Positions 3,307 through 51,036 of a stretch of DNA of 64,000 nt are shown here, one piece after another. The DNA comes from an uncultured delta proteobacterium. GTDB taxonomy: Bacteria > Desulfobacterota > Binatia > Binatales > Binataceae. The stretch is taken from contig CAVRVY010000003.1 of NCBI GenBank assembly GCA_963724765.1, forward strand, positions 1,504,001-1,568,000, read 5' to 3'. The notes below the pieces were generated by a model. It searched no databases, was not told where the DNA came from, and saw only the letters and a list, made by a program, of their open reading frames with translations. The first letter of the stretch is position 1; the number at the start of each line of letters is the position of its first letter. The position numbers were made by a program, and so were the translations under genes.

Positions 3307-4397
3307 GACGATGATCTCGTGGAATTGCTCGTGGAGGGAGTGTTCGCGGCAGAAGATCTCGCGACAAACGACGGGAACTGCCCAAGGAAGCGCAGATCGT
3401 TCTCGAAGAATAGCCGCATGTCGTCGACCCCGAGCTTGAGCAGCGCCTGCCGCTCCACGCCCATCCCGAACGCGAAACCCTGGTACTCTGCCGGATCGTA
3501 ACCGACCTTGCGCAGCACGTTGGGATGGATCATCCCGGAGCCCAGAATTTCGGTCCATCCGCTCTGCTTGCACACGCGGCATCCCGCGCCTGCGCAGAGC
3601 AGGCAGCTAATATCGAGTTCGGCGCTGGGCTCGGTGAATGGAAAAAAGCTCGCACGGAAGCGCACCGCGGTTTGCGGCCCATAGAAGGCGCGCGCGAATT
3701 CACTTAGCACGCCCTTCAGATGCGCCATCGTGACCCGCCCGGCGCGGTCGACCATGAAACCCTCGATCTGGCCGAACATCGGAGAGGCACGCACGCTAAG
3801 CTCGTCGCGCCGGTAGCAGTTGCCGGGGCAGACCACCGCCAGCGGCGGCTTGCGGCGCTGCATCACGCGAATCTGGCCGTTGGAGGTATGCGTGCGCAGC
3901 AGCATCCCGCCGGGCAGGAAAAACGTGTCCTGCATCTCGCGCGCCGGATGGTCGGGCGGAAAGTTGAGCGCCTCGAAGTTGTGGAAATCGTCCTCGACGT
4001 CCTGGGTCGCGGCGACCTCGAAGCCCATCGAGGCGAAGATGTCGAGCATCTGCTCCATCACCAGGGTCAGCGGATGGAGCCGGCCGCGTGGGATGCGCGC
4101 GCCGGGAAGGGTCACGTCCAGGCGCGCCTCGCCGAGCGAGCGCTCCAAGGCGGCGGCGCGCAGCCGCTCCTGGAGCGCCTCGATACGGGTTTCGATCTCG
4201 CGCTTTATCTGGTTGACGAGCTGGCCGATGGCGGGACGTTCTTCGGCCGCGACCTCGCGCATGCGGCGCATCACGTCGGTCAGTTCGCCGCCGCGCCCGA
4301 GCACGCGCACGCGTACCGCTTCGATTTGCTCGGCGCTGGCGCCGTCGCCCAGCTCCGCCATCGCCGCGGCCCGAAGGGCCTCCAGCTGTTCTCTCAT
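3303..4397 (-). CDS. pheS: Phenylalanine--tRNA ligase alpha subunit
   Basis: HPAREMQDTF, LRTHTS, FFPFTEPS, GFAFGMGVER. Confidence 0.97.
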   Translation of the reverse strand: MREQLEALRAAAMAELGDGASAEQIEAVRVRVLGRGGELTDVMRRMREVAAEERPAIGQLVNQIKREIETRIEALQERLRAAALERSLGEARLDVTLPGARIPRGRLHPLTLVMEQMLDIFASMGFEVAATQDVEDDFHNFEALNFPPDHPAREMQDTFFLPGGMLLRTHTSNGQIRVMQRRKPPLAVVCPGNCYRRDELSVRASPMFGQIEGFMVDRAGRVTMAHLKGVLSEFARAFYGPQTAVRFRASFFPFTEPSAELDISCLLCAGAGCRVCKQSGWTEILGSGMIHPNVLRKVGYDPAEYQGFAFGMGVERQALLKLGVDDMRLFFENDLRFLGQFPSFVARSSAANTPSTSNSTRSSS

Positions 4398-4480
4398 CCC
4401 GACCTCAAGAAGTCTGTATGCGCGTCATCGAGTCCGCGTGCGCGCACGCCGCAAGGGCGCGCCAAAACACAAAAGACATC

Positions 4481-4517
4481 AAATGAAAGACCATGTGGAC
4501 GCGCGCGCCACATGGTC
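4481..4517 (-). terminator. Probable intrinsic terminator after rplT
   Basis: Minus strand GACCATGTGG-N9-CCACATGGTC then TTTCATTT. Confidence 0.65.
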
Positions 4518-4553
4518 CTGTGAGCCGCGATGAGTCGCGCAGGGCGGCTCGCC

Positions 4554-4931
4554 CTAAGCGGCTGCGGCTTCGGCGGCTGCGTCGAGCGCTTTTTTGGCCG
4601 TGTCGGCCAATTCGGCGAAGAGCCGGTCGCGCTCCAGCGCGAGCACGGCGAGCTGCTTGCGGTCGATTTCGACGCCGGCCTTCTTGAGCCCGTCCATCAT
4701 GCGGCTGTAACTCAGCCCATACTCGCGGGCCAGAGCGTTGATCCGTGTGATCCAGAGCGAGCGGAAGTCACGCTTCTTTTGCTTGCGATCGCGATAGGCG
4801 TAAGTCAGCCCCTTCTCCAGCGTGTTGCGGGCCTGGCGATAGAGCTTGCGGCCGCCGACGAAGCCGGAGGCGAGCTTGAGCTGTCGTTTATGGCGGCGGC
4901 GTGTTTTGGGGCCACCTTTGGCGCGAGGCAT
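4554..4931 (-). CDS. rplT: 50S ribosomal protein L20
   Basis: MPRAKGG...[23 protein letters not shown]. Confidence 0.97.
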
Positions 4932-4999
4932 CGGCGATCAGTCCTTCCTTAATTTTGCCTTAATCTTGATTTAAGCGCTTTCGGGCTTTCGGCGCGTCG

Positions 5000-5197
5000 C
5001 TACAGGTATGGGACCAATTTGCGCGTATTGCGGGCGTCGGCGGCATTGAGGATGCCGGGATGACGCAGTTGCCGTTTGCGCGCGCGGCCCTTGGACGAGA
5101 GCAGATGGCGCAGGTAAGCCTTCTTATGTTTGACCTTGCCGGTCTTGCTCACGGAGAAGCGCTTGGCGGCGCTGCGATTGGTCTTCAGTTTGCCCAT
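5000..5197 (-). CDS. rpmI: 50S ribosomal protein L35
   Basis: MGKLKTNRSAAKRF...HLL; between infC and rplT. Confidence 0.96.
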   Translation of the reverse strand: MGKLKTNRSAAKRFSVSKTGKVKHKKAYLRHLLSSKGRARKRQLRHPGILNAADARNTRKLVPYL

Positions 5198-5257
5198 CGG
5201 TTACGGCCCTTGCTCCAGGTCACTTAGTGCGATCGCCAGTTGGGCGAATCATTGCGC

Positions 5258-5794
5258 TCAGCGCGGCGTCAGCAGGATCGACATGTTGCGCCCCTCCATC
5301 CGGGGCAGGCCGTCGGCCTGTGCGATGTCCTGCACTTGCGCGACGATCGAATCGAGCAACGTACGTCCCAGTTCGGGATGGGTTATCTCCCGGCCGCGAA
5401 ACGAAATCGAGAGCTTAACACGCTGGCCTTCGCCGACAAAGCGCCGGATGTGCTTGATTTTGAACTCGACGTCGTGTTTTTCGGTCCGCGCGCCCATCTT
5501 GACTTCCTTGATCGCCGTGGCGGTCGAATGGCGCTTGGAGTCATGGGTCTTTTTCTTTTGCGCGTAACGGTATTTGTCGAAATCGGTGACGCGGCAAACC
5601 GGGGGCTGGGCGGTGGGTGCGACCTCGACCAAATCCAGGCCGCGGCTTTCAGCCACGCGGATCGCTTCGCGGGTGCTCAGGATTCCGACCTGGCGGCCGT
5701 CGACATCGATTACCCGGACTTCCGGGACGCGGATCTGGTTGTTCACCCTTATCGCCGGCTCGCGCGGGGGCGGGGTACGAAAATCTCTACGAAT
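5258..5794 (-). CDS. infC: Translation initiation factor IF-3 (ATT start)
   Basis: NNQIRVPEVRVID, LDLVEVAP, FRGREITHPELG; in-frame ATT at 5794 preceded by GGAGGTG. Confidence 0.95.
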   Translation of the reverse strand: MRRDFRTPPPREPAIRVNNQIRVPEVRVIDVDGRQVGILSTREAIRVAESRGLDLVEVAPTAQPPVCRVTDFDKYRYAQKKKTHDSKRHSTATAIKEVKMGARTEKHDVEFKIKHIRRFVGEGQRVKLSISFRGREITHPELGRTLLDSIVAQVQDIAQADGLPRMEGRNMSILLTPR

Positions 5795-43507: not shown

Positions 43508-44860
43508 ATGCATTTCATGTGGTTTACGGAACGGGCGTACCATTATGATCCTGAGGTCGACCCGGCCAAGTATCATGCGCTGGAGAATCAGATCGTTGGA
43601 CTGCGCAGCTTCTTCAACACCCCCAACCGTTTTTTCGAGCGCGAGCACGGAGCGAAACTGCTCAACCAATACCTCGACGAGAAGATTTACACGGACTCCG
43701 AGCTGATGAGCTTCGACGGCGTGATGCTCAACGAGCATCATGGCACGCCGTTTTGCCTCGGTGCCGTGATGGATGTCGAAGCTTCCATCCTCGCCAAGAC
43801 CACCAAGCGGCTGAAGATGGTCCTGCTCGGCAATCCCGTCGCCACCGTCGCCAATCCGCTGCGCCTGGCGGAAGAACTGGCGATGATCGATCTCATCTCG
43901 GGCGGACGCCTGGTCTCCGGATGGGTGCGCGGCGCCGGTTCCGAGCAGTTCGCCAACAACACCAACCCGGCGCTCAACCGCGAACTGTTCGAGGAAGGCG
44001 TCGATTTCATCGTCAAGGCGTGGACCACGCCGGGCCCATTTCGCTACGAGGGCAAGCACTACAACTTCCGCAACGTGAACCCCTGGGTGCTGCCGCTGCA
44101 ACGGCCGCATCCGCCGTTCTGGATCCCGGGCCTGGTGAGTCCCGACACCGCCTTTTGGTGCGCCCGCAAGCGCTATCCGTACGTCGCCCTGGCCACGAGG
44201 CTGCAGCCGACGCTGGAGCTCTGGGACTTCTATGCGAAGGCGGCTGCGCAGGAGGGTTATCAGGCGGGGCCGGAGAATTTCGGCTACTTGCAGCCGGTGG
44301 TGGTGGCCGATACGCAGGAGCGAGCGGAGGAACTGGGCAAACGGATTCTTTTCGGCGGCGCCTTTGCGCACTTTGCTCGGCCGGAATGGATGTTCCCTCC
44401 GGGATACAATTCCAAGGCCGCAACCAAGCGTCTGGCCGAGTCGAATTTCGGCGCCAACGCCGCGGCCAAGTCGCTTTACGGCGAGGGCGGCAACAACGAG
44501 TCCGAAGAACAGATCGAAGCCGTCAAGAAACACATCTATGACGGCTATCCGGACGTCCTGAAGGACTACGTAATGATCGCCGGCACGCCTGACAACGTGA
44601 TTCCCAAGCTCAATAAAGTGCTCGACGTCCTGCGCCCGGGCATCTTTTCGTTCTGGCTCGACGGACCGGTCCCGGCCAAGGACCGGATGCGATGCCTGGA
44701 ATTGCTCAACCGCGACGTGATTCCGGCCATGCGCGACTACGGCAAGACGATCGGATTGGTCGATCCATTCCAGCGCGCTCCGGGTTCGCGCCCGTTGCGT
44801 CCGGGGGTTGCACCAGAGCCGGTGAGCAATGCCGACGCGCTCGCGTCGATGACGGCCTGA
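43508..44860 (+). CDS. Luciferase-like (LLM) flavin-dependent oxidoreductase
   Basis: FDGVMLNEHH, PLRLAEELAMIDLISGGRL, PLQRPHPP. Confidence 0.9.
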   Translation: MHFMWFTERAYHYDPEVDPAKYHALENQIVGLRSFFNTPNRFFEREHGAKLLNQYLDEKIYTDSELMSFDGVMLNEHHGTPFCLGAVMDVEASILAKTTKRLKMVLLGNPVATVANPLRLAEELAMIDLISGGRLVSGWVRGAGSEQFANNTNPALNRELFEEGVDFIVKAWTTPGPFRYEGKHYNFRNVNPWVLPLQRPHPPFWIPGLVSPDTAFWCARKRYPYVALATRLQPTLELWDFYAKAAAQEGYQAGPENFGYLQPVVVADTQERAEELGKRILFGGAFAHFARPEWMFPPGYNSKAATKRLAESNFGANAAAKSLYGEGGNNESEEQIEAVKKHIYDGYPDVLKDYVMIAGTPDNVIPKLNKVLDVLRPGIFSFWLDGPVPAKDRMRCLELLNRDVIPAMRDYGKTIGLVDPFQRAPGSRPLRPGVAPEPVSNADALASMTA

Positions 44861-45061: not shown

Positions 45062-45862
45062 ATGAGCTCTTCGGAAGAGGTGGCGGCCGGGCGTGCTCCT
45101 ACTGACTGGCTCGTCGGCTGGAAAACTCTATTTGTCGCATGCGGCCTGCTAATGGCCTGCAACGTTTTCCTTTGGGTCTGGGATTACAACTACGCGTTTA
45201 CGGCGGGACTTGATTCCTCGAGCCGCGCCTTCACGCTTCACTACCGCACGCTGTTCTGGGGTGAGCTGCTGAGCGTGGGGGCATTTGCCGGCCTGTGGTA
45301 CGGATGGCTGATGCGGACCGGCCGCAGTCTCGTGGGCGAGGCGGTGGCGCCCGCCGAAGAGGTGCGGCGCGTTGTGGTGCTGTGGGGAATTATCGGAGTT
45401 ACCAGCCTCTCGATCTACATCGAGGCGAGCTTCTGGCCCAACTGGGACGGCGCGTGGCATCAGACGATGGTGCGCGATACCGCGCTCACCCCGACCCACA
45501 TTCCGATGTTCTACTTCTTCTTCCCGATGTCGGTGGTGCTGGCCCTGGGAGCGTACCTGTACGGGCGCTTTCGGATTCCCGCGGTCTACGGCGGCGAGAA
45601 GGGATTCCCGTGGTCTTTCTTTTTGTTGATCGCGGCCGCGGTTCTCGAATTCGTGGAGGTCGCCTTCAACGAATGGGGTCACAGTCTCTGGATGTCAGAG
45701 GAATTCTTCTCGGTGCCCTTCCATTGGCCTTTTGTCATTTATGGATGGCTGGCGGGTGGGATGTTCGCGGTGTGGGGCGAAACCATCCTCTATCTCTTCC
45801 AGATAGAAAAGAGGGCGCGAGCGGTGGAAGAACTCCCGACCCATACGGCTGCCGCCGGCTAA
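45062..45862 (+). CDS. pmoC: Copper membrane monooxygenase subunit C (PmoC/AmoC family)
   Basis: AGLDS, EEVRR, DGAWHQTMVRDT..TPTH (D129/H133/H146), NEWGH...EEFFSVPFH (N203/H207/H221). Confidence 0.93.
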   Translation: MSSSEEVAAGRAPTDWLVGWKTLFVACGLLMACNVFLWVWDYNYAFTAGLDSSSRAFTLHYRTLFWGELLSVGAFAGLWYGWLMRTGRSLVGEAVAPAEEVRRVVVLWGIIGVTSLSIYIEASFWPNWDGAWHQTMVRDTALTPTHIPMFYFFFPMSVVLALGAYLYGRFRIPAVYGGEKGFPWSFFLLIAAAVLEFVEVAFNEWGHSLWMSEEFFSVPFHWPFVIYGWLAGGMFAVWGETILYLFQIEKRARAVEELPTHTAAAG

Positions 45863-45911: not shown

Positions 45912-46709
45912 ATGGCGACAGCACCATCGTTAGCCGCAGCCGCGGCGGCCGAGAAGCAACGCAGGCTCGCGCTGCGCGACCTGCTCAACGCGAAATATCA
46001 ATGGATCGATCGCACCTGGGACGCGGTCTTCTGGATCACGGCCATCTTCGTCGTTGCCGGGGCGGCGGACATCACGCGGCTGCTGTTCGCCGGCGATTGG
46101 GATTTCTGGACTGATTGGAAAGATCCGCAATGGTGGCCGGTGGTGACCGCCTTCGCCACCATCATCATTCCTTCCGCACTCCAATACATTCAGTGGGCCG
46201 CCTGGCGGTTCCCCACCGGCGCGACGTACACGTGCGTGTGCCTTTTCATGGCCTCGTGGATCGGGCGCTACTTCCAATGGCACGTGGCCGAAAGCTATCC
46301 AATGAACTTCATATGGCCGATATCGACGATTCCGGCGGCCATAATTCTTGACTGGCTATTGATGAGAACGAAAAGTTTCGTACTGACATCGCTTTTCGGC
46401 GGAGGGATTTGGGCCGTGATGGTGTGGAGCTTCAACTATATCCCGCTCGCGCCATTCCTTCAGCCGATGCAATTCATGCATCACATTCTCACGGTTGCCG
46501 ACGTCCAGGGCATCGTTTACATCCGCACCCAGACGCCCGAATACATGCGGCATATTGAACGCGGCGCGCTGCGCAGCTTTCTCGGCGAGACCCAGTACGT
46601 GTCGCTGCTGTTTGGCGGCACGATGGCGATGGTCGGTTATTGGATCGGCCAGTTCATCGGGCGATACCTCGCCGTGTGGCCGATTGGCAGATACATCAAG
46701 ACCGTCTGA
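45912..46709 (+). CDS. pmoA: Copper membrane monooxygenase subunit A (PmoA/AmoA family), divergent
   Basis: GDWDFWTDWKD, RFPTGAT, YPMNF, ADVQG, RTQTPEYMRHIERGALRSF. Confidence 0.93.
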   Translation: MATAPSLAAAAAAEKQRRLALRDLLNAKYQWIDRTWDAVFWITAIFVVAGAADITRLLFAGDWDFWTDWKDPQWWPVVTAFATIIIPSALQYIQWAAWRFPTGATYTCVCLFMASWIGRYFQWHVAESYPMNFIWPISTIPAAIILDWLLMRTKSFVLTSLFGGGIWAVMVWSFNYIPLAPFLQPMQFMHHILTVADVQGIVYIRTQTPEYMRHIERGALRSFLGETQYVSLLFGGTMAMVGYWIGQFIGRYLAVWPIGRYIKTV

Positions 46710-46728
46710 GCGAGGCGCGGGCACAGCG

Positions 46729-46965
46729 ATGCGAACCGTCTTTCGTTGCTTACGCGCCGTCGTGGTCGCGCTCCTGTGGACCAGCGTATTTGCCGCCAGC
46801 GCCTATGCGCATGGTGGAATCGCCGGGCCCGACGAGCTTGGCCCGCCGGTAATCACCTCGGCCGTGCTCGGCATCGGTGGCTACTGGTTGATGTTGCTGT
46901 GGCCGTCGCGCCGCCGTCCGGTGGTCAGCAAAAAAAACAAGCCGATGCGTAACGTGATGAAGTAG
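46729..46965 (+). CDS. 78-aa single-pass membrane protein between pmoA and pmoB
   Basis: ATG 19 nt after pmoA stop; signal peptide ending AYA, then HGG; TM VITSAVLGIGGYWLMLLW; basic tail. Confidence 0.72.
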   Translation: MRTVFRCLRAVVVALLWTSVFAASAYAHGGIAGPDELGPPVITSAVLGIGGYWLMLLWPSRRRPVVSKKNKPMRNVMK

Positions 46966-47007
46966 CGGACTTGCAGGCGGATTTTCCACGCCATACGGGG
47001 AGGCGGA

Positions 47008-48258
47008 ATGCGAATGCGATTTCCGGCTGTTCTGTCAGCGGCTCTCTTCCTGCTCACAGCATCCTATGCGCCACGCGCTTTCGCGCACGGCGAAGCGGCG
47101 GACGAGCCGTTCCTCAAGGATCTCACCGTCGCCTTCTATGACGTGCACATCTCGCCTACCACGATCAAAGTAGGTGAGCCGGTCACGATCACTGGAGCGG
47201 TGAAAATTCTCGAGACCTGGCCATATACGCTCGATCCGCCGCAAACCGCGTACATCACGCCGGTCGTTCCGGGCCCGGTCTTCGCGCTCATCAACCGGGA
47301 GATTAATGGGACCGCGGCGCCGGGCTCGATCCTGGTCGACAAGGGCGGCACTTATCATTTCAAAATGGTGATCGAGGGGCGCGACCCCGGAAACTGGCAC
47401 GTGCATCCGGGAATCGCTATACAGGGCACCGGGACTCTCATCGGCCCGGGCGAGTGGGTCACGGTTGAGCGGGGGGCCGCGCCCTTCAAAATGGACGTGA
47501 CGCTGCTCACTGGCCAAACCGTCAATCTGGAGCATTACGGCGGCAGTTTCGTATGGTGGTGGTCATTCGCCGGGTTCCTGATCGGCATGATCTGGATGAT
47601 CTATTGGACCGTTCCCAAACGTACCGTTACCCGTCTCGCGGTGACCACACAAATACCGGTCAACGACGACGCTCCCGACATCGGACTCATCACCCCGCGC
47701 GACCACATGTGGATGGACGTGCTCGCCGGTGCGACGATCGCGATGCTGGTCGTCGGCTGGATCTACATGGCAGTGAAGTTTCCCGTGCGGTTGCCGCAGC
47801 AGACGGTGCGCTTTGCGCCCGAGGTCATCGATTCCACCACTCATTCGGTCCAGGTGATGAAAGCCGATTCCACCTACGACGATCGGACCGATACGCTGTT
47901 GATAAACCTCGCGGTCAGGAATACCGGGACCGTTGCGTTAAGCCTGAAGCAATACATCATGGCGATGGCCACGTTCGTCAATGGCGACAAGAAAGAACAG
48001 GAAAAGGCCGGACCGGCGCACTACGTCGGGCGCATGCAGGTCGAGCCCGACGCTCCGATCGAGCCCGGACAGACCGCGAAGGTGCAATTGAAGATAAGTA
48101 GTCCGCTGTTCGATGAAGAGCGGCTCATCCCGCTGCACGACCCGCAGGAGCGTATCGCGGGGCTGCTGCGCTTTACCGGTCCGCAGGGTCACGAGGACCT
48201 GGTTACCCTGCATACCGATCTCGTGCCAACGGAGTTCCGCCCGCAGTATTTGCCTTAG
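47008..48258 (+). CDS. pmoB: Copper membrane monooxygenase subunit B (PmoB/AmoB family)
   Basis: Signal peptide AFA then HGE; FYD; PGPV; GNWHVH; GPGEW; two TMs; PIEPGQT; IAGLL. Confidence 0.93.
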   Translation: MRMRFPAVLSAALFLLTASYAPRAFAHGEAADEPFLKDLTVAFYDVHISPTTIKVGEPVTITGAVKILETWPYTLDPPQTAYITPVVPGPVFALINREINGTAAPGSILVDKGGTYHFKMVIEGRDPGNWHVHPGIAIQGTGTLIGPGEWVTVERGAAPFKMDVTLLTGQTVNLEHYGGSFVWWWSFAGFLIGMIWMIYWTVPKRTVTRLAVTTQIPVNDDAPDIGLITPRDHMWMDVLAGATIAMLVVGWIYMAVKFPVRLPQQTVRFAPEVIDSTTHSVQVMKADSTYDDRTDTLLINLAVRNTGTVALSLKQYIMAMATFVNGDKKEQEKAGPAHYVGRMQVEPDAPIEPGQTAKVQLKISSPLFDEERLIPLHDPQERIAGLLRFTGPQGHEDLVTLHTDLVPTEFRPQYLP

Positions 48259-48276: not shown

Positions 48277-48822
48277 GTGAAGATCAAGCGACGCGAGTTC
48301 CTGCACAAGAGCGCGCTGGTGGTCGCCGGCGTATCGGCAGCGGCCGCTGGTGTTACGGTCACCGGCTTTGCCGCCGAATGGACTTCGAAATTAAAGACCC
48401 TGAATGCACACGAGGCTGAAACGCTGCTCAAGATGGCGCGGCAGATCTTCCCGCACGACCGCCTCGGCGATAGCTACTATATAAAAGTAGTTGATGACCT
48501 CGATGCGGAGGCGGCAAGCAAGCCCGCCACCGCCAGAATGATAAGCGCAGGAGTAGCTAATCTGGATCATTTGGCGAAAGGCGAATTTGCCGCCCAACCC
48601 GCCAGCGATCAAATCGCCGCGCTCAAGAAAATTCAGCATACGCCGTTTTTCGAGAAGGTCCGCAGCACCGAGCTGGTTTCGCTGTACAATAACGAGGACG
48701 TTTGGAAGGTCTTCGGCTACCAGGGCGCCTCCTACCGTTTCGGCGGTTACCTGCATCACGGCTTCAACGACCTGAATTGGCTGCCGGAACCACCCGAAGC
48801 GGCAAGCCCGAAACCGGGCTGA
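48277..48822 (+). CDS. Tat-signal small subunit (gluconate 2-dehydrogenase subunit 3-like)
   Basis: KRREFL twin-arginine motif; IFPHD; LYNNEDVWKVFGYQG; GGYLHHGFNDLNWL. Confidence 0.8.
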   Translation: MKIKRREFLHKSALVVAGVSAAAAGVTVTGFAAEWTSKLKTLNAHEAETLLKMARQIFPHDRLGDSYYIKVVDDLDAEAASKPATARMISAGVANLDHLAKGEFAAQPASDQIAALKKIQHTPFFEKVRSTELVSLYNNEDVWKVFGYQGASYRFGGYLHHGFNDLNWLPEPPEAASPKPG

Positions 48823-48837
48823 ACGGAGAGTTGCATC

Positions 48838-50406
48838 GTGGCTCGATTCGATTCGAATGACGATTCCGTCGTGGTAATCATCGGTTCGGGAGCGGGCGGA
48901 GGCACGCTGGCGAACGAGCTCTGTCACAAGGGCTTCAAGGTGGTGATGCTCGAGGCGGGGCAGCGTCAGTCGCCGCAGACCTTTCACAACGACGAGTGGT
49001 TCGCATTCAAGCAACTAGCCTGGCTCGATAAGCGCACCACCTCGGGGACCTGGCGGGTAGCGAAGGACTTCCCCAACCTGCCGGCCTGGACCTGCAAGAC
49101 GGTTGGTGGAACGACCGTGCACTGGGCGGGCGCGTCGTTGCGCTTTCAGGAGCACGAATTCAAGACCAAGACCACCTATTCAAGTGTCAGCGGTGCGAAC
49201 CTTCTCGACTGGCCGATAAGCCTCGCGGAATTGGCGCCTTACTACGCCAAGGCCGAGGATAAGATGGGCGTGACGCGGACTAATGATATTCCGGGACTCC
49301 CGGGGAATAACAATTTCAAGGTAATGTATAATGGTGCCACGCGTGTAGGGTATAAGACTGTGCACACCGGGCGCATGGCGATTAATAGCCGGCCCCGCGA
49401 CCGCCGTTCGTCCTGCTGGCAACTCGGATTTTGTTTCCAGGGCTGCAAGTCGGGAGCGAAGTGGTCAACTCTCTACACCGAAATTCCGAAGGCCGAGTCC
49501 ACTGGTAAGCTCGATTTGCGGCCCGGGTCCTACGCGCTCCAGATTCAGCATGACGCCAATGGCAAAGCGACCGGCGTGCTGTACGCCGATAAGGACGGCA
49601 AACATGTCGTGCAGAAGGCGCGCATCGTGTGCGTGGCCTGCAATTCGATCGAAAGCGCGCGGCTCCTGCTCAACTCGGCCTCGTCCACGTTCCCGCACGG
49701 GCTCGCCAATTCATCCGGCCAGGTCGGCAGAAACTACATGCGGCATACGACCGGCTCCGTCTACGCCATTTTCGACAAGCCGGTCCATATGTATCGTGGT
49801 ACCGTGATGGCCGGAATCATCACCGACGAAGCCGAGTTGAATACCAAGCGCGGGTTTGCCGGCGGTTTCGAGATGGAGACCATCTCGCTCGGACTGCCGT
49901 TCGCGGCCGCGTTCCTGGATCCGGGAGCCTGGGGACGCGACTATTCGAGCATGCTTGAGCAGTATCCCAACATGGCTGGGTTGTGGATCGTGGGCGAGGA
50001 CATGCCGCAGGCGACCAACGCCGTGACGCTCCATCCGACGGTAAAGGACCAGTGGGGTCTCCCGATTCCGAACGTGCACTACGACGATCATCCCAACGAC
50101 GTCGCCATGCGCAACTACGGATACAAGCAGGGCGCTGCGGTGTACAATGCCGTTGGGGCGATCAAGACCATCGCGGTCCCGCCGTATCCTTCGACGCATA
50201 ACCTGGGCACGTGCCGTATGAGCGAGCGCCCCGGCGACGGCGTCTGCAATAAGTGGGGCCAGACTCACGACGTGAAAAATCTGTTCATTTCCGACGGCAG
50301 CCAGTTCACGTCCAGTGGGGGCGAGAATCCCACGCTCACGATCGTCAGCCTGGCCATCAGGCAAGCCGATCGCATCGCCGCCGAGAGTGCGAAGCGGAAC
50401 CTCTAG
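48838..50406 (+). CDS. GMC family flavin oxidoreductase
   Basis: IIGSGAGGG, VGGTTVHW, CWQLGFCFQGC, GRNYMRH, HNLGTCRM, NPTLTI; no signal peptide. Confidence 0.93.
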   Translation: MARFDSNDDSVVVIIGSGAGGGTLANELCHKGFKVVMLEAGQRQSPQTFHNDEWFAFKQLAWLDKRTTSGTWRVAKDFPNLPAWTCKTVGGTTVHWAGASLRFQEHEFKTKTTYSSVSGANLLDWPISLAELAPYYAKAEDKMGVTRTNDIPGLPGNNNFKVMYNGATRVGYKTVHTGRMAINSRPRDRRSSCWQLGFCFQGCKSGAKWSTLYTEIPKAESTGKLDLRPGSYALQIQHDANGKATGVLYADKDGKHVVQKARIVCVACNSIESARLLLNSASSTFPHGLANSSGQVGRNYMRHTTGSVYAIFDKPVHMYRGTVMAGIITDEAELNTKRGFAGGFEMETISLGLPFAAAFLDPGAWGRDYSSMLEQYPNMAGLWIVGEDMPQATNAVTLHPTVKDQWGLPIPNVHYDDHPNDVAMRNYGYKQGAAVYNAVGAIKTIAVPPYPSTHNLGTCRMSERPGDGVCNKWGQTHDVKNLFISDGSQFTSSGGENPTLTIVSLAIRQADRIAAESAKRNL

Positions 50407-50418
50407 CGGAAGCTCCAG

Positions 50419-51036
50419 ATGACGCGGCGCGTTTTCGGATTTCGCAGCGGCGCGTCGGCAGTTTGGATCGCCTCAGCGGCGATACTCATGCTGGCGCTTC
50501 CGTTCGCGGCGCGGGCTGAACTCGGCAAAGCCGCGGCGCGGGCGGTGGCGAGTCCTGCCGACGGCCTGCCAAAAGTAAGTCTTACAGACCAGAATGGCAG
50601 AGCGATCTCGCTTTCGTCATTGAAGGGCAAGCCGGCACTGGTCGCTTTTATCCACACCTCGTGCGAAGGGCCCTGCGAGCTGATCACTGCCGAGATGAAG
50701 TCGGTCGCGCGGAGCCTGGGGCCCAGCTTCAGGTCCGAAGTCACGATGGTCTCGATCACTACGGACCCCAAGGAGGACGGATCGCGCGAGCTGCTTGCCT
50801 ATGCCAAGGCGCAAGGAGTGGACGCCGACGGATGGGTGTTCCTGACCGGCGCGCCCGCAAAGATTCGCCGGCTCCTGGCCCTTTACGGCGTCTCGGCTGA
50901 AGACGACGACTCGGCCCACGTCCTGGAGCTGTTTCTGCTCAGCGCCGACGGCGTTGGATTACGCCGTTACAATGGTCTCGCGACACGTCCGGAAACGATC
51001 GCCTCGGATATCAGGAAAACCGTCTCGCTTCATTAG
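50419..51036 (+). CDS. SCO1/SenC copper chaperone
   Basis: N-terminal anchor, LTDQNG, TSCEGPC (CxxxC), ITTDP, WVFLTG, distal His (SAH). Confidence 0.88.
   Translation: MTRRVFGFRSGASAVWIASAAILMLALPFAARAELGKAAARAVASPADGLPKVSLTDQNGRAISLSSLKGKPALVAFIHTSCEGPCELITAEMKSVARSLGPSFRSEVTMVSITTDPKEDGSRELLAYAKAQGVDADGWVFLTGAPAKIRRLLALYGVSAEDDDSAHVLELFLLSADGVGLRRYNGLATRPETIASDIRKTVSLH

Follow-up and report, generated by a model that had tools for sequence, protein, structure and literature searches.

A small, predicted single-pass membrane protein is encoded between xmoA and xmoB in hydrocarbon-type copper membrane monooxygenase operons of Binatia

In the window analysed here, a stretch of 64,000 nucleotides (nt) from an uncultured member of the Binatia (assembly GCA_963724765.1, contig CAVRVY010000003.1, positions 1,504,001 to 1,568,000), the genes for the three subunits of a copper membrane monooxygenase (CuMMO) are arranged in the order xmoC, xmoA and xmoB, and a small open reading frame (ORF) lies between xmoA and xmoB. 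CuMMOs oxidise methane, ammonia and short alkanes, and their active site and full composition are debated. The small ORF comprises 78 codons on the plus strand, from the ATG at 46729 to the TAG at 46963-46965; it starts 20 nt 3' of the xmoA stop codon, and 42 nt separate its end from xmoB. An earlier interpretation, made from the letters and a list of ORFs (the sequence-only reading), had described it as masked by a longer overlapping frame. This was borne out, the frame for a product of 78 amino acids (aa) being found as the tail of a listed ORF (46495..46965, 156 aa, same frame) that begins with a TTG inside xmoA and swallows it. The small ORF was hidden for that reader because the list gives it only as this tail.

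46729 to 46965, plus strand: the small ORF, gene x of the xmoC-A-x-B operon (identified by translation, GC content at third codon positions (GC3), the ratio of nonsynonymous to synonymous substitution rates (dN/dS) and relatives)
46729 to 46809, plus strand: predicted Sec signal peptide, residues 1-27 (hydropathy, model helix, conservation at -1/-3; cleavage inferred)
46810 to 46848, plus strand: predicted periplasmic tip HGGIAGPDELGPP, residues 28-40, with the His codon at 46810-46812 (conservation, dN/dS)
46849 to 46902, plus strand: single transmembrane helix, residues 41-58 (hydropathy, model, conserved Y52-W53 and W58(-P59))
46903 to 46962, plus strand: predicted basic tail on the cytoplasmic side, residues 59-78, of the family's short type (8 Lys/Arg)
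45062 to 45862, plus strand: xmoC, CuMMO subunit C, 266 aa (PF04896, E 3.1e-44)
45912 to 46709, plus strand: xmoA, CuMMO subunit A, 265 aa (PF02461, E 3.5e-59)
47008 to 48258, plus strand: xmoB, CuMMO subunit B, 416 aa (PF04744, E 8e-83)

Three Arg (Arg2, Arg6 and Arg9) occur in residues 1-27 of the small protein, whose hydrophobic core (1.83 in the best 19-residue Kyte-Doolittle window) leads to A25-Y26-A27. H28 is the first residue of HGGIAGPDELGPP, so that the tip reads His-Gly-Gly-x-Ala-Gly-Pro-Asp-Glu-Leu-Gly-Pro-Pro. The sole hydrophobic stretch past the predicted signal peptide covers residues 41-58 (Kyte-Doolittle window 1.52), and the C-terminal tail carries 8 Lys/Arg among about 19 residues. 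In an AlphaFold2 model built from a 51-sequence alignment (mean pLDDT 78), helices were predicted at 2-27 and 34-56 and coil at 28-33 and 57-78, with the His in the coil between the two helices. Past the predicted signal peptide, both hydropathy (41-58) and the model (helix 34-56) give exactly one transmembrane helix in the small protein, and both agree with the layout originally claimed, that is, a signal-like start ending in AYA, then HGGIAGPDELGPP, one helix and a Lys/Arg tail.

Thirty-three loci from species-representative genomes were compared for synteny. The small ORF was directly preceded by xmoA in 32 of them and directly followed by xmoB in 30, and the exceptions were traced to a contig end (L017), a disrupted locus (L028) and an off-frame artefact (L033). 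No terminator-like site was found between xmoA, the small ORF and xmoB. At the disrupted locus, from about position 4018 (protein P0148), the tail of the small ORF enters a transposase-like fragment, and the xmoA upstream is truncated beside a GMC gene fragment. The artefact (3834-3962, labelled Acidobacteriota) had been a candidate member from outside the class, and was rejected as an off-frame match within a 928-aa repeat-protein ORF. It shows that GC-rich alternative frames can imitate the Gly/Pro-rich motif.

As a phylum-wide search for xmoA was too broad (3/401 genomes matched), co-occurrence was determined at the level of the class. Among 301 genomes of the window's class, xmoA was present in 68, the small ORF in 64 and both in 63, although these genomes are related and the counts therefore overstate the number of independent events. 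The counts include genome G595, flagged as unpublished, which has one xmoA match and one adjacent small-ORF match; its removal lowers each count by one and leaves the conclusions unchanged. Only one of the 233 genomes without xmoA carried the small ORF, and this assembly (G686) is 84% complete and divided into 800 contigs. The majority of small-ORF matches (62/84) lay no more than 800 nt downstream of an xmoA match on the same strand, and the window's own genome has one copy of each gene. The small ORF goes with one type of CuMMO operon, the hydrocarbon-type XmoCAB of Binatia.

The small ORF is a real gene under strong purifying selection. Its GC3 was 0.78, compared with 0.76-0.77 in xmoC, xmoA and xmoB, and its frame was unbroken in 29 of the 32 true homologous loci, the other three being in assemblies in which neighbouring genes are frameshifted. 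Pairwise dN/dS values (NG86) were calculated for the window and the 29 loci with an intact frame (435 pairs), leaving out pairs with dS of at least 3 or undefined, the three loci with a broken motif frame and frameshifted neighbouring genes (L009, L018 and L030), and the false match L033. The ratio was lowest, at 0.026, in the tip from H1 to P13 (249/435 pairs usable), rose to 0.24 in the helix (329 pairs) and reached 0.54 in the 20 codons before the His, which represent the signal peptide (291 pairs). Over His1-Pro32 it was 0.12, against 1.6 and 2.0 when the same DNA was read in the +1 and +2 frames; with dS near saturation (means 1.2-1.4) all these ratios are rough, though the contrast between frames is large. 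Purifying selection had been named by the sequence-only reading as a check, and it was found most clearly on the tip.

Relatives of the small protein are numerous and almost without annotation. A word-indexed search returned 151 at E<=1, all either unnamed or 'hypothetical'; a few gave an organism, in each case Candidatus Binataceae. Among 1.84 billion cluster representatives, 92 matched the profile at E<=1e-3, 55 of them at E<=1e-10. In an alignment of 51 diverse members (A2; 25-59% identity to the window's protein), A27, H28, P40, W58 and P59 were invariant, and the tip columns were invariant or almost so in a second alignment (A1). In total, 316 collected sequences matched the profile at E<=1e-5. 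The His was kept in all 310 relatives with an intact N-terminus, and the remaining six either begin downstream of it, apparently as cut-off gene calls, or have a deletion. Ala was found at -1 in 309/310 and Ala or Val at -3 in 303/310, and the median number of residues before the His was 27. No feature of the family is better conserved than this Ala-x-Ala/His junction, and the conservation of an AxA-HG motif, which had been proposed as a further check, was accordingly found. Within the tip, G29 was present in 301 relatives, G30 in 280, Glu or Asp at position 36 in 303 and P40 in 315 of the 316, and of the residues that mark the helix Y52 was present in 312, W53 in 306, W58 in 310 and P59 in 312.

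The window's protein has every invariant column of alignments A1 and A2 together with the typical gene position, and all marks of the family are found in it (Ala-x-Ala/His-Gly-Gly, Pro-Pro, Tyr-Trp...Trp-Pro, the basic tail and the location between xmoA and xmoB). The tail is the variable part, with 3-167 residues across 309 members and at least 40 residues in 109 of these (e.g. L019, L021, L025, L027 and L029). The long tails that were inspected have in common a Leu-Arg-Lys-Val/Ile-Glu motif and a terminal Arg/Lys-Ala-Ser-Asp-Val/Gly/Ala.

Searches of annotated databases gave no family for the protein. No Pfam or NCBIfam family matched the window's protein, and none matched more than 3 of the 51 members, all at E >0.002. 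A search of the PDB with profile A2 (hmmsearch, chains of at least 20 residues) gave no match at E<=10, the presence of AMO and pMMO entries (ammonia and particulate methane monooxygenase, respectively) in that copy being unconfirmed, and no structure from this clade of the enzyme came to light. The protein Atlas returned only the protein's own cluster (score 0.94, 'Candidatus Binatota'), and other matches scored 0.84 or less and had no Pfam family. The literature search found no paper that characterises the small protein; the sole mention was in a study of Binatota genomes, whose text describes 'CAxB or CAxxB' operons with x a 'hypothetical protein' (PMC8262859), supplements being outside the search. 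The small ORF is not mentioned in the retrieved passages of 10.64898/2026.02.02.703227 and PMC12533140, and a term look-up in PMC6215863 for a fourth gene, pmoD or a hypothetical gene gave nothing.

The second arrangement reported for Binatota can be accounted for by tandem copies of the small ORF. In L040 (3486-3800 and 3817-4104, minus strand) two small-ORF paralogues lie in tandem between xmoA and xmoB, giving the order C-A-x-x-B, and both retain Ala-Tyr-Ala/His-Gly, Pro-Pro and Trp-Pro. At another locus (L031, about 3893-5512) the small ORF has lost its stop codon, and its reading frame extends through a full-length XmoB. The same 540-aa fusion was found in a second assembly (P0321), and a different fusion of the small ORF with XmoB (P0131) is 74% identical to it. 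At the join, the basic tail leads into the start of XmoB and its own signal peptide. The tail would therefore be cytoplasmic, which supports an N-out/C-in topology of the small protein and its association with XmoB in a 1:1 ratio.

The distribution of charges points to the same topology. Across 309 members, the tip (11-13 residues) has a mean of 0.08 Lys/Arg and 1.84 Asp/Glu, and the first 15 residues of the tail have a mean of 5.46 Lys/Arg, so that by the positive-inside rule the tip is predicted to be periplasmic and the tail cytoplasmic. The residues at -3 and -1 follow the pattern recognised by signal peptidase I. Since this pattern is conserved and the first segment is loosely constrained, cleavage after Ala27, which would expose His28 as the first mature residue, is the likelier reading. 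The pattern of CopC-type proteins, a signal peptide followed by His as predicted first mature residue, is present and conserved at the level of sequence.

A possible counterpart was found in Actinobacteria. The XmoA of the window is 45-47% identical to HmoA, a subunit of hydrocarbon monooxygenase (HMO), of four actinobacterial plasmids (Mycolicibacterium chubuense NBB4, M. dioxanotrophicus, Rhodococcus WAY2 and Rhodococcus ZPP). In these plasmids hmoA and hmoB are separated by 4-26 nt, and in all four a small 'hypothetical' ORF lies directly after hmoB. The small ORFs of this kind, recognised by motif, helix and basic stretch, are located as follows.

L042, 5610-5825: look-alike small ORF
L043, 5587-5868: look-alike small ORF
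L044, 5065-5361: look-alike small ORF
L046, 301-558: look-alike small ORF
L048, 2498-2734: look-alike small ORF

The products of the four plasmid ORFs read Leu-Ala-His-Gly-Gly-Gln, then Thr, Asp-Glu and a hydrophobic helix, followed in 3/4 by Arg-Arg-Thr-Arg, and three residues separate Ala-His-Gly-Gly from Asp-Glu. They share with the Binatia protein the His-Gly-Gly...Asp-Glu motif, the helix, the basic stretch and a place inside the CuMMO operon of a sister clade, but they are encoded after B rather than between A and B, and lack a signal peptide, Pro-Pro and Tyr-Trp...Trp-Pro. The His is preceded by just 7-8 residues, and in the two plasmids checked stop codons occur 12-24 codons upstream, too close for a signal peptide to fit in between. 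An alignment of the two families (hhalign) gave E 5e-4 over the 14-column motif, with a probability of 31% (27-31% across comparisons), and a relaxed form of the motif has only four occurrences, including the small ORF itself, among the 10.8 million six-frame residues of the genome to which the window belongs. These results suggest that the Binatia and actinobacterial small proteins are probably related. A metagenome scan with the actinobacterial alignment returned only two loci (L047 and L048) and no bridging forms; the one inspected, L048, is near-identical to the M. dioxanotrophicus type.

The actinobacterial operons also have a second small ORF of about 115 aa after the first (L042 5822-6166, L044 5358-5705 and L048 2798-3145). 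Its product has a hydrophobic stretch, and a Phe-Ile-x-x-Val-Glu-Arg-Gly motif is common to L042 and L048. No counterpart of it was seen in the Binatia operon.

Downstream of xmoB in the window lies a group of genes that accompanies the operon elsewhere.

48277 to 51036, plus strand: three genes, for a 181-aa protein whose N-terminus weakly resembles a Tat signal, for a flavoprotein oxidoreductase of the GMC type and for a copper chaperone of the SCO1/SenC type (Pfam)

The Tat-signal match of the 181-aa protein (E 0.0072) fails the curated cut-off. The three genes adjoin the operon in most of the 33 loci, in two alternative arrangements. A gene for a luciferase-like monooxygenase upstream of xmoC (43508-44860) also accompanies the operon in many loci. 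The proteins encoded by these four genes may be alcohol-oxidising and copper-supply partners of the monooxygenase.

Synteny, co-occurrence and the natural fusions with XmoB fit a role as an accessory subunit. We consider it an evenly balanced proposition that this small type-I membrane protein serves the hydrocarbon-type XmoCAB of Binatia as a dedicated accessory component and, most likely, as a stoichiometric supernumerary subunit. In the mechanism that we propose, the Sec signal peptide would be cut after Ala27 to leave a peptide of about 51 residues, whose acidic tip of 13 residues would stand in the periplasm at the membrane surface, with one helix spanning the membrane and the basic tail in the cytoplasm. 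The helix, in which Tyr-Trp and Trp-Pro are nearly invariant, would bind to the membrane domain of the enzyme, much as the small helices of pMMO and AMO do. The His-Gly-Gly...Asp-Glu tip would touch the periplasmic face of XmoB or XmoC, where it could either bind Cu(II) or make a fixed contact. The small protein would then be the operon-encoded equivalent, for hydrocarbon-type enzymes, of the supernumerary helices of pMMO and AMO.

The periplasmic tip may handle copper. A Cu(II) site is suggested by the extreme constraint on the tip, with its single His, two Gly and an Asp-Glu pair seven residues on, and the gene for the SCO1/SenC chaperone is part of the conserved cluster. The ligands may be the imidazole, the free amine or the amides of the following Gly residues, and a carboxylate. 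Peptides with an N-terminal His chelate Cu(II) via the amine and the imidazole, and internal His-Gly-Gly units, as in the prion octarepeat, bind Cu(II) via the imidazole and deprotonated Gly amides. Between them, these two modes would account for the Binatia form, with cleavage, as well as for the actinobacterial form, without it. The putative site may be an entry point from which the copper centres of XmoB or XmoC are loaded, or an added ligand of one of these centres. That the tip is a genuine Cu(II) site required for activity of the hydrocarbon-type CuMMOs of both Binatia and Actinobacteria is a bolder claim, and one that we regard as doubtful.

Several observations, in addition to the relatedness of the genomes counted above, weigh against the proposed role or its reach. 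Forty of 102 xmoA matches in the class had no adjacent small ORF (10 of them canonical-pMMO-like and about 28 of a divergent CAB type), and since some CuMMO types of the class have no adjacent copy, the small protein is not a general requirement of CuMMOs. Some 20 orphan paralogues are distant from any xmo gene. The two fused sequences come from one subclade and may represent a single event. All 309 members have one His in the tip and no Cys, and the mature peptide of the window's protein has no other His; any copper site therefore needs further ligands or backbone amides, and the peptide cannot by itself form a three-His site of the PmoB type. The sequence-only reading had proposed a mature N-terminal His as copper ligand. 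The junction on which this was based is conserved, but the free alpha-amino group as the key feature is weakened by the look-alike, whose lack of a signal peptide means, if it is homologous, that a free N-terminal amine is no universal requirement. Its further suggestion that the protein is a minimal stand-in for PmoD found no match in Pfam, NCBIfam or the PDB, so that what stands of that interpretation is a genuine, CuMMO-linked gene with a conserved predicted N-terminal His. The novelty of the finding is reduced as well, the existence of the gene being already in print as 'x, hypothetical protein' in the text of the Binatota study (PMC8262859).

The orphan paralogues are of the type Ala-His-Arg-Gly-Phe-Gly-Pro-Ala-Glu-Leu. 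One example from the same class (L036 6962-7210, family f4) is flanked by an opposite-strand ORF of 451 aa and a downstream ORF of 350 aa. Orphans occur mostly in genomes that have a second, divergent xmoCAB without the small ORF (L037), and in four genomes of genus g283 the second operon is present and the orphan absent. In the divergent operon of L037 the gap between A and B is about 100 nt, which is too small for the small ORF.

An alternative that we hold to be a real, if lesser, possibility is that the small protein is a transient metallochaperone or assembly factor, whose tip takes up periplasmic copper, for instance from SCO1/SenC, and passes it to XmoB or XmoC, and which is absent from the finished enzyme. 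The most constrained part of the protein is indeed the tip and not the helix (dN/dS 0.026 vs 0.24), and the conserved SCO1/SenC gene would fit such a donor. A factor acting in trans is also easier to square with orphan paralogues and tandem duplicates, and with the other CuMMO types that manage without an adjacent copy. On the other hand, the in-frame fusions imply 1:1 production with XmoB and permanent proximity to it, and the placement of the gene between A and B, where no terminator-like site was found, is consistent with stoichiometric co-expression. The near-invariant Y52, W53, W58 and P59 likewise suggest a specific docking surface.

The accessory-subunit proposal would change little if the first hydrophobic segment were not cleaved. 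The protein would then be a two-helix hairpin in which AHGGIAGPDELGPP forms a short periplasmic loop with an internal His, and its role would be the same. Positive charges at both ends (Arg2, Arg6 and Arg9, and the tail), the internal His of the actinobacterial look-alike and the similar confidence of the two helices in the AlphaFold2 model are compatible with a hairpin. It is nevertheless unlikely, since the residues at -1 and -3 and their distance from the start conform to the signal-peptidase pattern in nearly all relatives, the first segment has changed far more rapidly (dN/dS 0.54) than the second helix (0.24), and the absence of the first segment in Actinobacteria shows it to be dispensable for function.

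It is still less probable that the small protein is a regulatory peptide whose tip senses copper or substrate and whose basic tail signals to a regulator or to the membrane. The long tails of 109/309 members, with common C-terminal motifs in those inspected, and the gene for a zf-HC2 (anti-sigma-type) protein upstream in the M. dioxanotrophicus operon could be taken in this sense. However, the window's protein and many others have a tail of 19-20 residues without those motifs, so the conserved function does not lie in the tail; no regulator gene is conserved next to the Binatia operons in the 33 loci; and a fusion with XmoB is hard to square with signalling. Finally, a chance open frame in a GC-rich intergenic spacer deserves next to no credence: GC-rich DNA does yield many spurious ORFs, among them two that overlap the small ORF (46746..46952, plus strand, and 46750..46989, minus strand), and the Shine-Dalgarno-like GAGG is rather distant from the ATG (about 13 nt), but this reading was set aside because of the large contrast in dN/dS between the frame and the other two forward frames, and it also conflicts with the frame being intact in nearly all true homologous loci and with the invariant residues of the 316 relatives.

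The family makes the need for small fourth subunits in CuMMOs, and their contact with copper, directly testable. Cryo-electron microscopy in 2024-2025 revealed tiny, formerly unannotated helices on pMMO and AMO (PMC11725843, PMC12804982), and complete heterologous expression of CuMMOs is described as largely restricted to the mycobacterial HMO (PMC13058606). Either the genes of the known helices lie outside the operon or the helices are too short for sequence analysis. The family described here is distinct in that it is encoded in the operon, has hundreds of members and an extremely constrained, predicted periplasmic His motif, and likely has a counterpart in actinobacterial HMO. Through this look-alike, the phenomenon would extend to a CuMMO for which recombinant expression and mutagenesis have been reported (PMC13058606). 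If the tip proved to be a required copper site, the working enzyme would consist of four gene products, and the omission of such small partners would be one reason why CuMMOs are difficult to express in foreign hosts. The finding also supplies a rule by which annotators can recognise this gene where ORF callers absorb it into a longer frame or leave it as hypothetical.

Among known systems, the N-terminus of PmoB and XmoB resembles that of the small protein. The XmoB signal peptide of the window ends in RAFA and is followed by HGEAADEP, in line with the comparison to the AFA/HGE junction of PmoB made in the sequence-only reading, and the small protein likewise has an Ala-x-Ala signal end, then His-Gly and an acidic pair a few residues on. 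A comparison of the small protein (46729-46850) with the N-terminus of XmoB (47008-47110) by hhalign gave E 6.8e-4 and a probability of 27%, and MAFFT, unprompted, placed the small proteins on XmoB's own N-terminus (alignment A6). This likeness may come down to the composition of signal peptides, or the 5' end of xmoB may have been duplicated in part long ago. In the CuB site of XmoB, however, His27 pairs with His131 and His133, all three invariant in 23 sequences, whereas the small protein has one His. The combination that defines a histidine brace, an N-terminal His with a further His in the same protein, is therefore not found in it.

In PmoD, about 100 residues form a folded domain in the periplasm. 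In this PmoD differs from the small protein, as do CopC-like proteins, for only 13 periplasmic residues and no folded domain are predicted in the latter, and no Pfam or NCBIfam family matched it. PmoD and the operon type of AmoD are encoded with CuMMO genes and exported, and a role in assembly or in the delivery of electrons or copper has been proposed for them (Murphy et al.). The archaeal subunits AmoX, AmoY and AmoZ are closer in kind, being small extra CuMMO membrane subunits that are conserved in one lineage, and their supposed role is to compensate for helices that the archaeal core subunits lack (PMC13058606). In Binatia, by contrast, the core subunits are near full-length, XmoC, XmoA and XmoB matching almost the entire length of their Pfam models, and the PDB, Pfam and NCBIfam searches revealed no similarity to the archaeal subunits.

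The supernumerary single helices of pMMO (23 aa, Methylocystis sp. Rockwell) and AMO (46 aa, Nitrosomonas europaea) lie beside subunit C (PMC11725843). Both AmoD and AmoE have been described, AmoD being the supernumerary helix in the structure of the N. halophila AMO (PMC12804982). Like the small protein, the bacterial AmoD helix is a very small, single-pass, CuMMO-associated protein that was missed by annotation (PMC11725843, PMC12804982). In contrast to it, the small protein is encoded within the xmo operon, whereas AmoD is encoded outside the amo operon (PMC12804982). The two also differ in orientation, the N-terminus of AmoD being cytoplasmic (PMC11725843, PMC12804982) and that of the small protein predicted to be outside. 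No conserved periplasmic His motif is described for AmoD, whereas the small protein has one, and the Rockwell 23-mer is too short for a periplasmic tip. Neither helix gave a sequence match in the PDB profile search (E<=10), subject to the same uncertainty about the AMO and pMMO entries in that copy. In the pMMO of M. capsulatus, an unassigned density extends from the membrane as far as the CuB site of PmoB (PMC11725843), the geometry that is proposed here for the His tip, although it was seen in another CuMMO clade. By analogy, the small protein resembles the supernumerary helices of AMO and pMMO in kind, yet stands outside those families as an operon-encoded protein of its own.

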